From a virus, in the IMG/VR virus record IMGVR_UViG_3300017782_004332, positions 1 to 64,000 of that record: 64,000 nucleotides of DNA, one strand, 5' to 3'. Below are positions 4,442 to 48,631 of the stretch, piece after piece. Under the pieces are notes generated by a model that saw nothing but the letters and a program-made list of their open reading frames with translations, did not search any database and was not told the origin of the DNA. The first letter of the stretch is position 1; every line of letters starts with the position of its first letter. A program made the position numbers and the translations under genes.

Positions 4442-4460
4442 ATGACTAAATAATAATACA

Positions 4461-4510
4461 ACGTTCAGGCGACATAGCCCGGAAGTAAGCAACTATGCTG
4501 AAGGAACGCA
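4461..4510 (+). ncRNA. Glutamine riboswitch (glnA RNA motif)
   Basis: CGTTCA-ggc[gacata]gcc-CGGAAGTA-agc[aactat]gct-GAAGGAACGC: P1 CGTTC/GAACG, P2, E-loop and P3 match the glnA motif consensus. Confidence 0.8.
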
Positions 4511-4534
4511 CTTAACTGTAAAAAGGAGAGTGTA

Positions 4535-7252: not shown

Positions 7253-8614
7253 ATGAAAATGAAGACATCGGATTTTATGAACAAAGTCACTGTAGACGGT
7301 TTAAACGCAAAGTTGCGTGAAAATCATGGTATATCAGTAGACGTTGCAAAGTACAGTAAGGCTCAACTAGAGCAATACAGCAAAAAAATTGAGGCTAAAC
7401 TACACAAATTTGAAACTAGTAACAACTTCAATGAAAGTTTAGTTAATGAAAATTATCATAAAACCAAATTAATCCACAAACTTATCGAAACTGCTATCAA
7501 TCAATACTTAGATGATCCCCTTGAAGATGATTTAGATATCGAAATCGAAGATGTTGATGTAACTGATGAAGACGTAGCAAGAGACTTTGCAGAAGACGAA
7601 AAAGAAGAAGAGCCAGAAGCAGACGGAGAAGAGCCAGAAGCAGACGGAGAAGAGCCAAAAGAAAAAGAAACTATGTCATCTATGGCAATGGCCGCTTTGA
7701 GATCTATGATGGACAATCCAGAAAAAATGGCATTGGCACGTAGAGCAATTGATAAAATTAAAGATCATGAAAGTGCCGCTACAATTACTCCACAAGAAGT
7801 AGATGCTATTAGAGGCCCATTAGAAAAATTCTTCTTACCTATTTTAGATAAAGGAATGTCAGGTGTTTCTAGAACTAAACCTGTTATGAAAACATTAGGT
7901 GCCGGAGCATATGAATCAGTTCAAGAAGGAACATACGAAAGTATGCCATCAAAAGCAGACGTAATGAAATGTTGCAAAGAAGGCATGAGCAAAAAAGATA
8001 TTTGTGAAAAATATTCAAACTGTGATCAAGACAAACTAAAAGAAATGTGTGAGTCTTGTATGAAAGAGATGAAAACTATGAAAGAATCAGAAATTAAAGT
8101 TAATAAAAAAGTTATTAAAGAAGGCGAAGAAGATAAAGCGGCATTAGTAATGGCTTCAAAAGATATGGTAGATAAGTTTACTTCATTCTTAGAAGACGTT
8201 GCTGAAATGAGTGCTGAAGGTATGCTTGAACTACAAGATCAAATCAGAGATGAAATGGGTCAAGAACAAGCAGAACAATTTACAAATACAATTGGTCCTG
8301 CTTTAGAAACTACAATCGAAACTTTAAAAACTGCACGTGAAACACTAACAAAAGGTGTTGGCATTATAACAGGCGAAACTGCTCCAGATGATACAATTGG
8401 CGCAGAACCAGATATGCCTGCAGATGACGCAGTTGCAACTGATCCAATTGATCCAGAGGGCGACGACATGGCTCCAGTGGATGATGAATTTGGTGCAAGT
8501 GATGCCGCAGTTGGAGGCGCAGATCCCGAAGGCAGAGAGAAGCGTGAAAGTTATACACCAAAGAAAAAATCAATCGCAGAGTCAACTAGAATTTTTTCAA
8601 CTTTAAGTAAGTAG
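7253..8614 (+). CDS. Acidic prohead core/scaffold-like protein
   Basis: Highly acidic and helical, many LxE/IxE sites, TAAATA upstream. Confidence 0.5.
   Translation: MKMKTSDFMNKVTVDGLNAKLRENHGISVDVAKYSKAQLEQYSKKIEAKLHKFETSNNFNESLVNENYHKTKLIHKLIETAINQYLDDPLEDDLDIEIEDVDVTDEDVARDFAEDEKEEEPEADGEEPEADGEEPKEKETMSSMAMAALRSMMDNPEKMALARRAIDKIKDHESAATITPQEVDAIRGPLEKFFLPILDKGMSGVSRTKPVMKTLGAGAYESVQEGTYESMPSKADVMKCCKEGMSKKDICEKYSNCDQDKLKEMCESCMKEMKTMKESEIKVNKKVIKEGEEDKAALVMASKDMVDKFTSFLEDVAEMSAEGMLELQDQIRDEMGQEQAEQFTNTIGPALETTIETLKTARETLTKGVGIITGETAPDDTIGAEPDMPADDAVATDPIDPEGDDMAPVDDEFGASDAAVGGADPEGREKRESYTPKKKSIAESTRIFSTLSK
7607..7657 (+). repeat. 21-bp tandem repeat (EEPEADG x2 plus partial copy)
   Basis: gaagagccagaagcagacgga twice, then gaagagcca. 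Confidence 0.9.
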
Positions 8615-17015: not shown

Positions 17016-17091
17016 AACTCTCCTTTGGTTAGTTGTTGGGCGTTTTCTTGAGCATTAGTTATCATTTTTTTTTAAAATACGCACTTTATGG

Positions 17092-17122
17092 TTGACAACA
17101 TATGTAAAAGGTGCTATAAATA
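17092..17122 (+). promoter_or_regulatory. Composite sigma70 and late promoter of the tmRNA
   Basis: TTGACA-N17-TATAAA overlapping TATAAATA. Confidence 0.7.
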
Positions 17123-17127
17123 TAAGT

Positions 17128-17585
17128 GTAATTGTTGACAGCATCGTATGTCACAAGAACAGGACCCGGGGGCGGTACCCGGCGCCTCCACCATAAACAC
17201 ATGGAGTTAAAAATGGTAGTAGATTTTAAGGAAAAATGTAGGATTTATTACATGGTAAAAGGCAATTTAGTAGGATTAAGCAAAAAGCAAATTGAAGAAT
17301 CCTACGATAGTTACTTTAAAAGACTCTGGGGAAACCATGAAGCAGTGTACAGAGAACAAGGCTTCGAAGAAAACTATCGTGTGTTTATGATGGGGGCGAA
17401 ATAGGATCGACTGGCTTGTTAAGGGTGAAAGAGATTACCGGTAAGGAACGACCGAGCGTATATGGGGAGACTCATGCTACTGTCCAAAACTATAACTGCA
17501 AACGATAATTTTGCATCTGAAGAGTTACGCCTAGCGGCTTAATTCGACGGGGTTGGCAACTTACCTGGCAACAGAAAAGTTGCGT
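17128..17585 (+). ncRNA. ssrA: Circularly permuted two-piece tmRNA (alphaproteobacterial type)
   Basis: Acceptor piece ends CGCCTCC-A-CCA at 17193. Coding piece starts GGGGGCGAAATAGGATCGAC at 17392, giving a G3:U acceptor pair. Tag ANDNFASEELRLAA* at 17498-17542; CCTGGCAACAGAA tail. Outer ends are approximate. Confidence 0.93.
17213..17404 (+). CDS. 63-aa ORF within the tmRNA intervening segment
   Basis: GGAG RBS 6 nt upstream; open through the whole intervening segment; stop lies 13 nt inside the coding piece. Confidence 0.55.
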   Translation: MVVDFKEKCRIYYMVKGNLVGLSKKQIEESYDSYFKRLWGNHEAVYREQGFEENYRVFMMGAK

Positions 17586-17610
17586 TTTACTAGACGCAAA
17601 GGAGTTTTAC

Positions 17611-18054
17611 ATGCGTACTATCTTTTTAGCAACATTCGTTGCTTTAATTACAACTACTGCTAGTGCTTCAACAACAGTAGTAACAGATCATTACAAAACT
17701 GTAATGAAACAAATTCCATACACGCAGGAAACTTGTCGACTAGTTGATGTTCCTGTATATGGGACTGTAGACTCAGAGCCTACAACAGGTGATATTCTCA
17801 CTGGCGCTATTATTGGTGGCGTTATTGGAAATAACATCAAAGGAGAAAAAAATGGCGGTGCCGCTGGTGCTGTCATTGGTGGATTGCTAGGTGCAAACAA
17901 TAAGAATAAAAAGCAAACTATTGTAGGGTATCGGCAAGAAGAACAGTGTAATACTATCACAGAGTATACACGTTCGACCGAAGAGGTATATGATTACAGT
18001 ACTGTTAGATTTACTGACGGTGGTCGCGAATATACACTGCGATTTAAGAAGTAA
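17611..18054 (+). CDS. Secreted glycine-zipper 2TM protein
   Basis: Signal peptide; GAIIGGVIG...GAVIGGLLG. Confidence 0.8.
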   Translation: MRTIFLATFVALITTTASASTTVVTDHYKTVMKQIPYTQETCRLVDVPVYGTVDSEPTTGDILTGAIIGGVIGNNIKGEKNGGAAGAVIGGLLGANNKNKKQTIVGYRQEEQCNTITEYTRSTEEVYDYSTVRFTDGGREYTLRFKK

Positions 18055-39485: not shown

Positions 39486-41111
<1,626 letters not shown>

Positions 41112-43474: not shown

Positions 43475-45538
43475 ATGGCTGATAACAGGTATTACGAATT
43501 AGCAACACACAACGAAGCACAATTTGATGAATTGTTTCTAGAGATAACAGGAACAGCATCAAGCCCAGATACAATTCCAGATAGAGCAGTTGAAAACACA
43601 GAATACTTTCAACATAGTCCTGTGCGTGGAGAATTTTTACTTACTGACGATGAAGCAGAAAATTTAAAAACAGATGCAAGAATAAAATACATTCAACTAT
43701 CACCAGACAAGTATCCTGATATTTTTAACGCAACTGAAGATGACCTTCGTGCAGACGTTACAGGTAATGAATATGAAAGATATAGTTTTTCTGTTAAGAA
43801 CTATCAGTTCTGGGCAAATAGTGGGGCGATATCAAGTGCATTTGGTACAGGCGCGGCAGATCTTAATCATGCATCAAATCAACTTTATAGAATGGGTCAA
43901 CAAAGAAACCCATGGATTGTAAGTGGTACTAGTAGTACAACTGCTATCTCAGATACTATTACACAACGAGGTGCAGGAGAAGATATAGATATTATTTGTG
44001 CTGATAACGGAACATGGATTGGCCATGTTGAATTTATTAATACAGGTGTTACTAATGCTGTTAATCCAGATGATTACACAGGCGGTAATGTTTTACCCGG
44101 CAACGGATATTGTGATGTATTAGATGTTATTTTAGATGGACCTTATTATATAGATCCAGATTGGTTTAACGCTGATGCGGCGACTAGATTAACCACACGT
44201 TGGGACGGAACAACAGTGCCTGTAGAAAGTGTTGCTAGAACATGGTGGGGAAACAGTTCTCAACGTTCTGCCGCATTTGCTAGTGCAGGAACAGTAACAA
44301 TAAGTTCATTTTACACAAGAGATGGTGTACATGGATCTAACACAACACATCCAACAGGTGCCGCGGCTACACACGGAACTCAGTGTGCAAGTTTGATATA
44401 CGGTCGTACACACGGTTGGGCATACAACGCAAACAAATGGCATTTAAATTTATACGGCGCTAGTAACGCAGGGTCAATTGAGCGTGGGTTTGATATTCAA
44501 AAGATTTTCCATGAAAACAAACCTAACAATTCAAGATACGGAACTAAAGATCCAACTATAAGTTCAAACAGTTGGGGATATAGAGCAGACAAGTCAGGAA
44601 CACATTATTATTTTCGTGATAGCGGAGCAGTAAGTTATCCTGGATCAGTTGACGAACCAGAATTTTTAAAGTATATGGGTATAGATGGAGATGGTGGTCG
44701 TTGGAAATCAGAATTTTATGATAATAGTTTAACTCAGGCTGGAGAAGAATTAGTAAACAGTGGAGTTATTTTTGTAGTGGCGGCTGGCAACAGTGGACAG
44801 ATGCAAGTTAATCCAAGCCATCCTAATTACGATAATAGAATTGCTAACAATAATACTGATAGTTTTTACAATACCACTTACAGTAGTTTTGGTTATAGTG
44901 TTACAGGGTCTACAAATAGAAGAGGTTTCCCACAACACATTGGTAAATCAGTAAGTCAAAGTTCACAAGGTGATACAGTAAACTTTCCTGCTATTAACGT
45001 AGGAGCACTAGATGATTCATTTCAAACTGGTCCATTAGAACGTAAAGTTAATTATAGTGATATGGGGAATGCTATTGACTTATACGCACCTGCAGACGGA
45101 ACACTTGCGGCGGCAGTAGGAACATATGGAACTGATGTTGCACGTCATGATGATACTTACACAGATCTATCAACAACAGATTGTCGTGATACACGCTTTA
45201 GTGGTACTTCAGCGGCATGTCCAGTTGCGGCAGGATTTTTAGCAACTATCTTACAATACAATAGAGGTTGGACTTATACTGATGTACGAAATTGGATTAC
45301 AACTAATGTTCAAGGTGTTGACAGCACCAACGAATTTTATGTAGGCACAGAAGATACTACAGCCGAAAGCGCCGGTTGGGCTGATCGCAACAAACCACAA
45401 AATAGTGCAGATGATGTACGAGTTCTTTATCTAGCACCTTTTACAATTTCAACACCCGACCCACAAACAAACCCTACTGTTTCAATTGGTAATGGATTAA
45501 CGTTCAGTAAAGGTCTAGTTCTTAAAAGACGTGTGTAG
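43475..45538 (+). CDS. Subtilisin-like serine peptidase (S8)
   Basis: D (ADNG), H (HGTQCAS), N (AAGNS), S (FSGTSAACP). Confidence 0.88.
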   Translation: MADNRYYELATHNEAQFDELFLEITGTASSPDTIPDRAVENTEYFQHSPVRGEFLLTDDEAENLKTDARIKYIQLSPDKYPDIFNATEDDLRADVTGNEYERYSFSVKNYQFWANSGAISSAFGTGAADLNHASNQLYRMGQQRNPWIVSGTSSTTAISDTITQRGAGEDIDIICADNGTWIGHVEFINTGVTNAVNPDDYTGGNVLPGNGYCDVLDVILDGPYYIDPDWFNADAATRLTTRWDGTTVPVESVARTWWGNSSQRSAAFASAGTVTISSFYTRDGVHGSNTTHPTGAAATHGTQCASLIYGRTHGWAYNANKWHLNLYGASNAGSIERGFDIQKIFHENKPNNSRYGTKDPTISSNSWGYRADKSGTHYYFRDSGAVSYPGSVDEPEFLKYMGIDGDGGRWKSEFYDNSLTQAGEELVNSGVIFVVAAGNSGQMQVNPSHPNYDNRIANNNTDSFYNTTYSSFGYSVTGSTNRRGFPQHIGKSVSQSSQGDTVNFPAINVGALDDSFQTGPLERKVNYSDMGNAIDLYAPADGTLAAAVGTYGTDVARHDDTYTDLSTTDCRDTRFSGTSAACPVAAGFLATILQYNRGWTYTDVRNWITTNVQGVDSTNEFYVGTEDTTAESAGWADRNKPQNSADDVRVLYLAPFTISTPDPQTNPTVSIGNGLTFSKGLVLKRRV

Positions 45539-46566: not shown

Positions 46567-48612
46567 TTATTTGGTTGTTGCTATAAAGACGCCGTTCCAG
46601 TCTTTAGGTAAGTCTTGTGTTTTCTGATATTTACAACGTTCAATCCACATATCATAATAAGCATCCATTTGTCCATCAAATTGTCCTTTAAGGTCTTTAC
46701 ACATTTTAATAGCAATATCAAAACGTTGATCTTTATATTCTTTGTGCATATGATCGTGTAGTTCTTTTGCCTTAGCATGATCTTTTATAACAATATCTAA
46801 TACTGTCCATATACCTATTCCTACACTCTTGCCTTTAACAGCAAGATCATCTACTTTTAAGTAGAAGAAATCATTCTTAGTTGCTTTATAAGTTGTTTCA
46901 CCTACTAATAGCAAACATCCGTATTCTTTACACTTGCTTTCAATTCTTGCGGCTGTGCTGACGGCATCACCAAGTACATCGTAGGAGTGTCTTGCTGTCG
47001 ACCCCATTTCTCCAAGGTAACCAAGTCCGGAGTTAATACCCGCTCCCATACCGATGGCTGGCCTTCCTTCTGCTGTAATTTTTTCATTAAACTTCTCCAC
47101 TGCTCGTAGCATATTCAATCCAGTGCGGACTGCACTCTTAGGATGATCTGGATCATCAAGTGGTGCACCATGTACATGCATACTTGCATCTCCTATATAC
47201 TTAATTATCATTCCGTTTTCGTTTAAAACAGGTAAAGTAATAGCGTCCATATATGAGTTCATAAGTGTTGTCAATCCTTTTACATCATCTCCAAAACTTT
47301 CACCCAAAGGAGTAAAGCCTCTCAGATCACTGAAGCAGATTGAAATTTCTTTCTTCATGCCTTCTTTGATCAGTGCAGGATTTTCTTGTAGCATACGCAC
47401 AACTGTTGGTGATGCATATCCTGCGAACTGTTTCTTAATTGCTTGTTTTTCAAAGAACTCTTTGGAAAATCGATTGAACACAGAATGGAAACCAACAATA
47501 GTAGTTACTAGTACTATCCAACTCCAATCCCATAACTGTAGATGCCCTATAAACGCTGTATAAGCACCGTACACAGGCGCTATGATTACTGTAAGCATAG
47601 TAGTACCAACGACCCAGTAAGGCGCTTTAAACGCTATTATAATTAGAATAAGACCTATAATAGTAGCAGTTATATACTCTAAAAACGTAGCATAATCAAA
47701 ACGTACAATAGTATCCCCATTAATGATAGTTTGGAGACTTGTGCCTATAAGTTCGTGTGCATATCGTTCTCCGTTTGGAGTAGCAATAATACTGCCTATA
47801 CCTTCTGCTGTAGTTCCAATAATAACTGTTTTGCCTGCAAATTGTGTGTAATCTTGTTCTGTTATACTGTAGGTAGGAAACTGCTTGTTCCAACGTAGCC
47901 ATATCTGTCCATTTGCATCTGTTTTGATTGTGGCGTACTTTGGAATACGCATTGCAGTAATACCGCCTTCTTGCGTTTTAACTTGATAACTTGGATCTCC
48001 AACAGCAACTCTGATGGCTTCAATTGCTATAGCAGGATATGTTTCGTTGCCTACACGTACAATAAGTGGCATTCTACGTACAACCCCGTCTATCTCTGAA
48101 CCTGTGTTTAAAACTCCAACACCGTCTGCATTTAATCCTAATAATTCTATTGGTCCTAACATGCCAGGCCATTCAAACAACCATGGCATAGGATCGCCTA
48201 TCTTAGCAACACCTCGTGGTACAGAATTCTTGTTTGCATTTCGCGAACCTACTTGTCCTATGACTACAGCATTACCTACTAATGCTTGAGCAAGTTCCAT
48301 GTCACCACCAAGTCTATCTTCCTCTGAAAATAATATAGGCAGTACAATTACTCCTGCACCTGACTCACGTAACTTCCATATAACATCAGCGAGTACTGAA
48401 CGTTTCCAAGGCCATTGCCCATACTGCTCGATCGCTTTTTCGTCTATCTCAAGTATGGCGATATCTTCGCTAACAACTGGAGTATCGTATTGTTGAACAA
48501 CATCAAATGCTTTTAGTCTCAATAGTTGCTTAACATAAGGATCTGAAAATCCGTATATTGTAAGAAATGCTAAAGTAATCAGGGCGGTTGCCCAGTGGGT
48601 TACATATTTCAT
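46567..48612 (-). CDS. CHASE2-domain class III adenylate/guanylate cyclase
   Basis: IDE..YGQWPW.R CHASE2, three TM helices, FSDLRGFT, KYIGDA, GEMG..YDVLGDAVSTAARIE; start at 48612 or 48618. Confidence 0.92.
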   Translation of the reverse strand: MKYVTHWATALITLAFLTIYGFSDPYVKQLLRLKAFDVVQQYDTPVVSEDIAILEIDEKAIEQYGQWPWKRSVLADVIWKLRESGAGVIVLPILFSEEDRLGGDMELAQALVGNAVVIGQVGSRNANKNSVPRGVAKIGDPMPWLFEWPGMLGPIELLGLNADGVGVLNTGSEIDGVVRRMPLIVRVGNETYPAIAIEAIRVAVGDPSYQVKTQEGGITAMRIPKYATIKTDANGQIWLRWNKQFPTYSITEQDYTQFAGKTVIIGTTAEGIGSIIATPNGERYAHELIGTSLQTIINGDTIVRFDYATFLEYITATIIGLILIIIAFKAPYWVVGTTMLTVIIAPVYGAYTAFIGHLQLWDWSWIVLVTTIVGFHSVFNRFSKEFFEKQAIKKQFAGYASPTVVRMLQENPALIKEGMKKEISICFSDLRGFTPLGESFGDDVKGLTTLMNSYMDAITLPVLNENGMIIKYIGDASMHVHGAPLDDPDHPKSAVRTGLNMLRAVEKFNEKITAEGRPAIGMGAGINSGLGYLGEMGSTARHSYDVLGDAVSTAARIESKCKEYGCLLLVGETTYKATKNDFFYLKVDDLAVKGKSVGIGIWTVLDIVIKDHAKAKELHDHMHKEYKDQRFDIAIKMCKDLKGQFDGQMDAYYDMWIERCKYQKTQDLPKDWNGVFIATTK

Positions 48613-48631
48613 ACTCATATTTACCTAGTCA

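Follow-up and report, generated by a model that had tools for sequence, protein, structure and literature searches.

Does the spacer of a permuted tmRNA gene in a phage genome hold a working protein gene and, if so, how might one transcript act both as its messenger and as the precursor of a stable RNA? The two-piece tmRNA encoded by a permuted gene is known from Caulobacter (Keiler, Shapiro and Williams 2000, as cited in PMC9004378), and the spacers of such genes have been treated as disposable linkers, which annotation pipelines skip or cover with spurious ORFs called through the acceptor piece. The locus studied here lies in a stretch of 64,000 nucleotides (the window; positions 1 to 64,000 of the IMG/VR virus record IMGVR_UViG_3300017782_004332) and has a long spacer with an ORF that runs into the coding piece (Table 1).

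Table 1. Features of the tmRNA locus, in window coordinates.
Feature	Position	Strand	Basis or detail
Promoter-like region	17092..17122	+	TTGACA 17092-17097, 17-nt spacer, TATAAA 17115-17120; read from the sequence
tmRNA acceptor piece (5' strand of P2, T-arm, 3' acceptor strand, CCA)	17128..17193	+	RF04321 match starts at 17128
Closing stem, 5' arm (13 bp + 4 bp), holds GGAG	17192..17208	+	MFE fold
Intervening segment (spacer), 198 nt, not in mature tmRNA	17194..17391	+	Unaligned insertion in both Rfam models
Shine-Dalgarno GGAG, 6 nt 5' of the ATG; 4/4 bases paired in the folded precursor	17203..17206	+	Sequence and fold
63-codon gene (P0001), DSYFKRLW family	17213..17404	+	ORF list, homology, selection
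Closing stem, 3' arm, also codes N54-M59 (NYRVFM)	17372..17389	+	MFE fold
Predicted RNase P cleavage site, 5' end of coding piece, within codon 60 (ATG 17390-17392)	17391..17392	+	Rfam alignment and ORF frame
tmRNA coding piece, starts GGGGGCG	17392..17586	+	Rfam, ARAGORN
3'-terminal hairpin and T-run, terminator-like	17568..17590	+	Within the 3' end of the alpha_tmRNA model

An alpha-type permuted tmRNA gene in a marine phage

The source record (104,925 bp, ~30% complete according to CheckV) has a GC content of ~36%, carries nearly all of its genes on one strand, and codes for six tRNAs, a class I ribonucleotide reductase, a GroEL-type chaperonin, and tail and virion proteins. It belongs to a large uncultured marine phage and not to an alphaproteobacterium, so that the tmRNA gene, which the first-pass annotation had taken for a bacterial ssrA, is phage-encoded. 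No SmpB gene was found in the 105-kb record, and the SmpB partner of the phage tmRNA is presumed to be that of the host. Elsewhere in the window are a glutamine riboswitch aptamer at 4460-4512 (Rfam RF01739, 49.3 bits), an element known from Melnitz-like and pelagimyophage genomes (PMC9004378), and genes for a CHASE2 and class III nucleotide cyclase membrane protein, the GroEL-type chaperonin and a subtilase (46567-48618 (- strand), 39489-41111 and 43475-45538, respectively).

Two Rfam models matched the locus over their full length at about twice their curated cut-offs: alpha_tmRNA (RF01849) at 17088-17586 with 114.2 bits versus a cut-off of 50 (model positions 1-355), and tmRNA_permuted (RF04321) at 17128-17542 with 104.4 bits versus 47 (model positions 1-213). 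ARAGORN also called a permuted tmRNA, with the tag ANDNFASEELRLAA*, which ends in LAA and whose reading frame spans 17498-17542. The acceptor piece, with the T-arm and an encoded CCA, comes first and is followed by the coding piece, which begins with the 5' acceptor strand. At its end the acceptor piece reads ...CCUCCACCA, with the CCA closing at 17193, and the T-arm and ...CGCCUCCACCA match the Rfam consensus with high posterior probability. In the acceptor stem, GGGGGCG pairs with CGCCUCC to give the G3-U pair of alanine identity. The gene is an intact, alpha-type permuted two-piece tmRNA. The first-pass annotation had proposed a permuted two-piece tmRNA from the letters alone, and its placing of the CCA end at 17193 and of the coding-piece start at 17392, with about 198 nt between, was borne out by both Rfam and ARAGORN.

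The TATAAA of the promoter-like region overlaps a T4-late-type TATAAATA (17115-17122). Our consensus promoter scan missed this region because its -10 hexamer has a final A, and the same TTGAC...TATAAAT layout occurs 5' of the acceptor piece in L011, L017, L118 and other loci. Judged from these motifs, the region would function as a promoter. By analogy with the known maturation of two-piece tmRNAs, cleavage would fall at 17391/17392.

The spacer is closed by a stem of 13 bp (17192-17204/17377-17389), which take in the CA of the CCA, followed after a 1-nt bulge by a 4-bp extension in the window locus (17205-17208/17372-17375). The two 10-mers proposed earlier as the arms of an extended stem, complementary at 9 of 10 positions, are thus part of a longer helix. 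Across 80 distinct phage spacers, the 13 pairs were paired in 84-100% of cases, with 3-6 pair types at positions 6-12. When partners were slid by 1-2 columns as a control, pairing was 0-40% at most positions, the exceptions being A/T-rich positions 3-5 (~1.0) and positions 5-8 at a shift of 2 (0.7-0.85). In L002, where the protein has A in place of V, the stem shows the compensatory replacement of A-U by G-C. Covariation was confined to the stem arms, with none in the spacer interior. On these comparisons, the closing stem is a selected RNA element.

The spacer gene and its protein family

The GGAG-led ORF starts at the ATG at 17213 and stops at the TAG at 17402-17404, nucleotides 11-13 of the coding piece, which belongs to the conserved tmRNA sequence GAAAUAGG; another ATG in the same frame, at 17201, would make a protein of 67 aa. 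Shuffling the spacer interior with the stem arms held fixed yielded an ATG-initiated ORF of at least 63 codons in 70 of 20,000 trials. The public gene call at this locus, P0002 (90 aa, TTG start; window 17132-17404), runs through the acceptor piece into the real gene, and is an annotation artefact that masks both the tmRNA and the true start.

A word-indexed protein search with P0001 returned nine relatives. With tblastn, relatives were confirmed at 253 loci in viral contigs and 174 in metagenome contigs, and an exhaustive profile search gave 182 clusters at 50% identity, all of 47-107 aa and none fused to another protein. The family core reads KEa.R..W.vKG, then YDSYFKRLWGN.E, then GFEeAy, and K16, R37, W39 and F51 are invariant in the alignment. 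Most members have strong AGGAGG ribosome-binding sites, and the majority of family loci lie outside any tmRNA. Among the close relatives of P0001 (P0003, with 90% identity, and P0006-P0010), P0006, P0008 and P0009 show unexplained C-termini. In L101 (2900-3611, - strand), two diverged DSYFKRLW paralogues stand in tandem 1.4-1.9 kb upstream of a tmRNA.

No significant match to the P0001 family was found in Pfam, PHROGs, PDB sequence profiles or the ESM Atlas, nor was there any tblastn match in 50,697 deposited phage genomes. AlphaFold2 modelled P0001 as three helices (pLDDT 81.6), and Foldseek found no significant match for this model in PDB and BFVD (best E ~3). Neighbouring genes vary among loci and give no functional clue: DNA polymerase and MazG in L024, ribonucleotide reductase and endolysin in L057, and ribonucleotide reductase in the window. 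P0001 is, according to the searches and the predicted structure, a stand-alone, three-helix member of a widespread marine-phage family. A homing endonuclease or other mobile insertion was considered for the spacer and rejected, since P0001 has no Pfam or PHROG match and Rfam shows no intron in the spacer.

Some relatives lie, like P0001, inside tmRNA spacers, with amino acid identities to the window protein of 68% (L002/L143/L202), 61% (L106), 58% (L118) and 52% (L147, and L005/L204). In a maximum-likelihood tree, the window, L202 (with L002/L143), L106 and L147 form a clade (support 100/90), whose sister (99/95) is L203/L003, while L204 sits on a long branch elsewhere; this placement implies that the family gene went into the spacer once or twice. 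In L003, L004 and L203 the gene directly precedes the tmRNA and runs into the 5' end of the acceptor piece, and since no promoter is visible between them, the tmRNA seems to be processed from the 3' end of the mRNA. The copy in L003 (3004-3440) ends in the 5' part of the acceptor piece and is 14 nt from an upstream 227-aa gene.

The spacer-located copies have diverged to saturation at synonymous sites (pS 0.68-1.0) and much less at nonsynonymous ones (pN 0.24-0.43; pN/pS 0.29-0.57), and dN/dS among them, a rough estimate given a dS near saturation, was 0.16-0.27 where computable. Homologues of the ORF, some of them inside other tmRNA spacers (L002/L143, L005, L106, L147), and purifying selection, with a dN/dS of ~0.2 among the spacer-located members, were what the first-pass annotation had suggested looking for. 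The decisive evidence is that homologues number hundreds: by these sequence comparisons the spacer ORF is a real, conserved gene under selection.

Starts differ among the spacer-located copies. In L005, L106 and L147, the start ATG lies within the stem and has no Shine-Dalgarno sequence. The spacer ORF of L118 (434-635) has no in-frame ATG, and at the position of the window's ATG it has ATA (Ile), 8 nt after GAGGA; an out-of-frame ATG there starts a 3-codon mini-ORF. P0025 is a second diverged sequence with an L118-like layout. A non-AUG start or decay is possible in the L118 lineage.

ORF-bearing spacers in other phage tmRNAs

A scan for the motif at the junction of spacer and coding piece, in which the 8 spacer nt before the junction and the 9 coding-piece nt after it were fixed, returned 120 viral loci, nearly all of them true tmRNAs; these phage loci are mutually related, and the counts that follow are therefore not of independent events. 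Both pieces could be mapped in 113 phage tmRNAs, whose spacers measured 18-464 nt. All 28 distinct spacers of at least 140 nt had one forward frame at least 80% open. The reverse strand reached this in 9 of the 28, and the mean for shuffles was 0.52. The ORFs of at least 30 aa, in spacers of at least 100 nt, make up about 20 mutually unrelated families that include membrane peptides, Cys-rich and basic mini-proteins and one HNH-like nuclease, and the other families seen in several loci had dN/dS values of 0.05-0.48. In families other than DSYFKRLW, start codons occur 7-23 nt from the beginning of the spacer, and stops from -17 to +42 relative to the start of the coding piece. Ten of the ORF-bearing tmRNAs exceeded both Rfam cut-offs with full-length matches.

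Cellular alpha-type tmRNAs found with the same motif scan (Bartonella, Rhizobium, Neorhizobium, Sneathiella and Rhodospirillales) had spacers of 29-69 nt and no ORFs. Two metagenome-assembled genomes, one assigned to Methanobacteriota (L364) and the other to Rhodobiaceae (L329), contain tmRNAs of the phage type whose spacers, 260 and 184 nt long, bear ORFs, and have a flanking GC of 0.42 and 0.34, respectively; both are probably misbinned phage contigs.

The precursor as a probable messenger, and alternative readings

The sole promoter-like element on the strand of the ORF is that 5' of the acceptor piece. No second promoter could be read in the acceptor piece, where a TTGACA at 17135-17140 has no -10 partner, and a separate promoter for the ORF was rejected because the 19 nt between CCA and ATG are too few to hold one. 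The earlier suggestion that the precursor doubles as an mRNA is upheld by this arrangement and by the conserved, selected ORF, and further by the same gene recurring in four diverged spacers and by the ~20 unrelated ORF families in the same slot. From this comparative evidence, a single transcript would very probably serve as messenger first and then as stable-RNA precursor. We infer co-transcription, the order of translation before processing, and the processing sites, and consider that this is probably an alpha-type two-piece tmRNA gene of a phage in which the excised spacer is an expression slot for a small gene, translated before the RNA folds and is cut.

The transcript would extend from the promoter-like region to the hairpin near 17590 and include both tmRNA pieces with the 63-codon gene between them. 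GGAG and the start codon would emerge ~170 nt before the 3' arm of the stem, allowing ribosomes to load during transcription. A ribosome would then read past the 3' arm, continue 13 nt into the coding piece and halt at the TAG of GAAAUAGG. Upon its departure the 13+4-bp stem and the acceptor stem would fold and hide GGAG, and RNase P and 3' trimming would free both tmRNA pieces. With the start near the 5' arm and the stop near the 3' arm, initiation would need a free 5' arm, and a terminating ribosome would sit over the RNase P site as well as the 3' arm. The RNA sequence sets the last ~7 residues of P0001. Pairing of a 5' leader with the 3' RCCA is reported to slow bacterial RNase P (PMC9433436) and could here lengthen the time available for translation. 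That GGAG is base-paired in the MFE fold can equally be read as a sign of weak translation.

The first-pass annotation went further and proposed a feedback loop, in which RNase P, by cutting at 17391/17392, strips the stop codon and turns the excised spacer into a non-stop mRNA whose product is tmRNA-tagged and degraded, so that maturation tunes the protein level. The geometry is right, as the cut falls in codon 60 and would leave a message that ends after codon 59 and lacks the TAG, which lies 11-13 nt into the coding piece. The LAA at the end of the tag is, in addition, what usually marks a protein for degradation. However, the arrangement is not conserved: DSYFKRLW genes in spacers stop before, at or after the cut, namely at -1 (TGA before GGGG; L106, L147), +13 (TAG; window, L002, L118) or +28 (TGA; L005). 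All three frames are used across the ORF families, about equally in the better-supported ones (several loci or at least 45 aa; hand tally). Although 13 of the 23 family-by-stop-position combinations are in frame B (stop at +13), we did not accept this raw count as a bias towards the coding piece, since it is inflated by short ORFs and by the openness of that frame through the conserved stem. The conserved RNA itself supplies two stops, the TGA in UUAUGAU-GGGG and the TAG in GAAAUAGG, third-frame ORFs carry their own, and the position of the stop follows from the frame in which the gene landed. Moreover, an excised spacer would retain the 13+4-bp stem over GGAG, and fresh initiation on it should be poor. 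We regard such a loop as improbable; more likely, non-stop products are hazardous and translating first keeps them from arising. The stop would be lost on maturation in about half of the family-by-stop-position combinations and in about two in five of the better-supported families (hand tally), which poses the question of how non-stop products are avoided or used during infection.

Could P0001 instead be a functional partner of the phage tmRNA, acting in trans-translation or on SmpB, RNase P or the precursor, with its placement reflecting co-regulation? A tmRNA was present in the fetched flank of 35 of 176 family loci, a rate far above that for a random phage gene, mostly with the family gene upstream and co-oriented (about four exceptions) and at distances from in-spacer to 2.6 kb. 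The three layouts (inside the spacer, running into the acceptor piece from its 5' side as in L003/L004/L203, and as a near upstream neighbour) are, moreover, scattered over several clades of the family tree. Against this, whole-record searches weakened any obligatory linkage: gene and tmRNA are 27 kb apart on opposite strands in G001 (183 kb, the only record at least 90% complete) and 36 kb apart in G005, and at 89 family loci whose downstream sequence extends for 1.4 kb or more, no tmRNA is present there. The slot, holding as it does ~20 unrelated ORFs that include membrane peptides and an HNH nuclease, is not specific to this protein, and an eroding ancestral synteny would suffice to explain the linkage. 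A dedicated partnership hence seems unlikely. Less probable still is that the ORF is a captured relic, no longer expressed and kept open by recency or by constraint at the RNA level. The sequestered GGAG and the L118 lineage without an in-frame ATG would fit a relic, but copies at 52-68% amino acid identity with saturated synonymous sites have kept the invariant residues and the open frame, covariation is found in the stem arms alone and not in the interior, and no other copy of the family that might serve as a back-up was found in the 105 kb of the phage record (~30% of the genome by the CheckV estimate).

Returning to the spacer as an expression slot translated before processing, an extended version would make the locus a timed, self-limiting device: each transcript would allow brief translation of the spacer gene before the stem closes, ribosomes caught by the RNase P cut would be rescued and their product tagged by the nascent tmRNA, cargo and tmRNA output would be coupled one-to-one, and the DSYFKRLW cargo might act on trans-translation or precursor processing. 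We consider this extension improbable.

In its piece order, T-arm, CCA, acceptor G-U pair, LAA tag and a stem that extends the acceptor stem, the gene is like the permuted tmRNAs of alphaproteobacteria (RF01849, RF04321), but unlike these it is phage-encoded and has a 198-nt spacer with a selected gene, compared to the 29-69 nt and no ORF of the cellular spacers sampled. It shares with the tmRNAs of OM43 phage Melnitz and pelagimyophages (PMC9004378) a marine phage origin, an alpha-type ssrA with its own promoter, phage tRNAs and a glutamine riboswitch; the available part of that source describes no protein gene in the spacer. Inserts have been reported in other tmRNA genes (PMC11915505, in which the word ORF is absent): permuted spacers are known to contain a tRNA-Ala gene or a repetitive element, and the T-loop of standard tmRNA can be interrupted by group I introns, some of which encode homing endonucleases. 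The window locus resembles these in having extra genetic cargo in a part of the tmRNA gene lost from the mature RNA, but its cargo is an ordinary small protein gene, independent of splicing, whose 3' end overlaps the mature RNA. No description of a protein gene in a tmRNA spacer was found in the searchable literature.

Dual-function RNAs and genes co-transcribed with stable RNAs include SgrS/SgrT, RNAIII/hld and the small ORFs of the T4 tRNA cluster. As in these, a peptide and a functional RNA would here come from a single transcript; unlike in these, the coding part is absent from the mature RNA, and translation and folding would compete for one stem. A precursor that doubles as an mRNA would, if confirmed, be a compact case of kinetic coupling between translation and RNA folding and, should phages routinely house genes in the spacer, small phage proteins of a whole class would be escaping notice.

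Three further loci show what such slots can contain and, possibly, how they are filled. The longest spacer, of 464 nt (L157, 1999-2391, - strand), has an ORF of 131 aa, whose HNH motif scores 21.4 bits, exactly the Pfam cut-off, and may hold a free-standing homing nuclease lodged in the tmRNA spacer. In L038 (3775-3868), a 96-nt spacer without an ORF has a T-arm-like GGTTCAAGTCCAACC, possibly a tRNA-like fragment, although ARAGORN calls no tRNA there. In L137 (7938-9440), two tandem permuted tmRNA genes, with coding pieces at 8274 and 9252, flank a 137-aa gene that by eye resembles the gene downstream of the tmRNA in the window (17611-18054); if such a tandem lost its first coding piece and its second acceptor piece, the gene would end up in a spacer, which is a possible route of capture.
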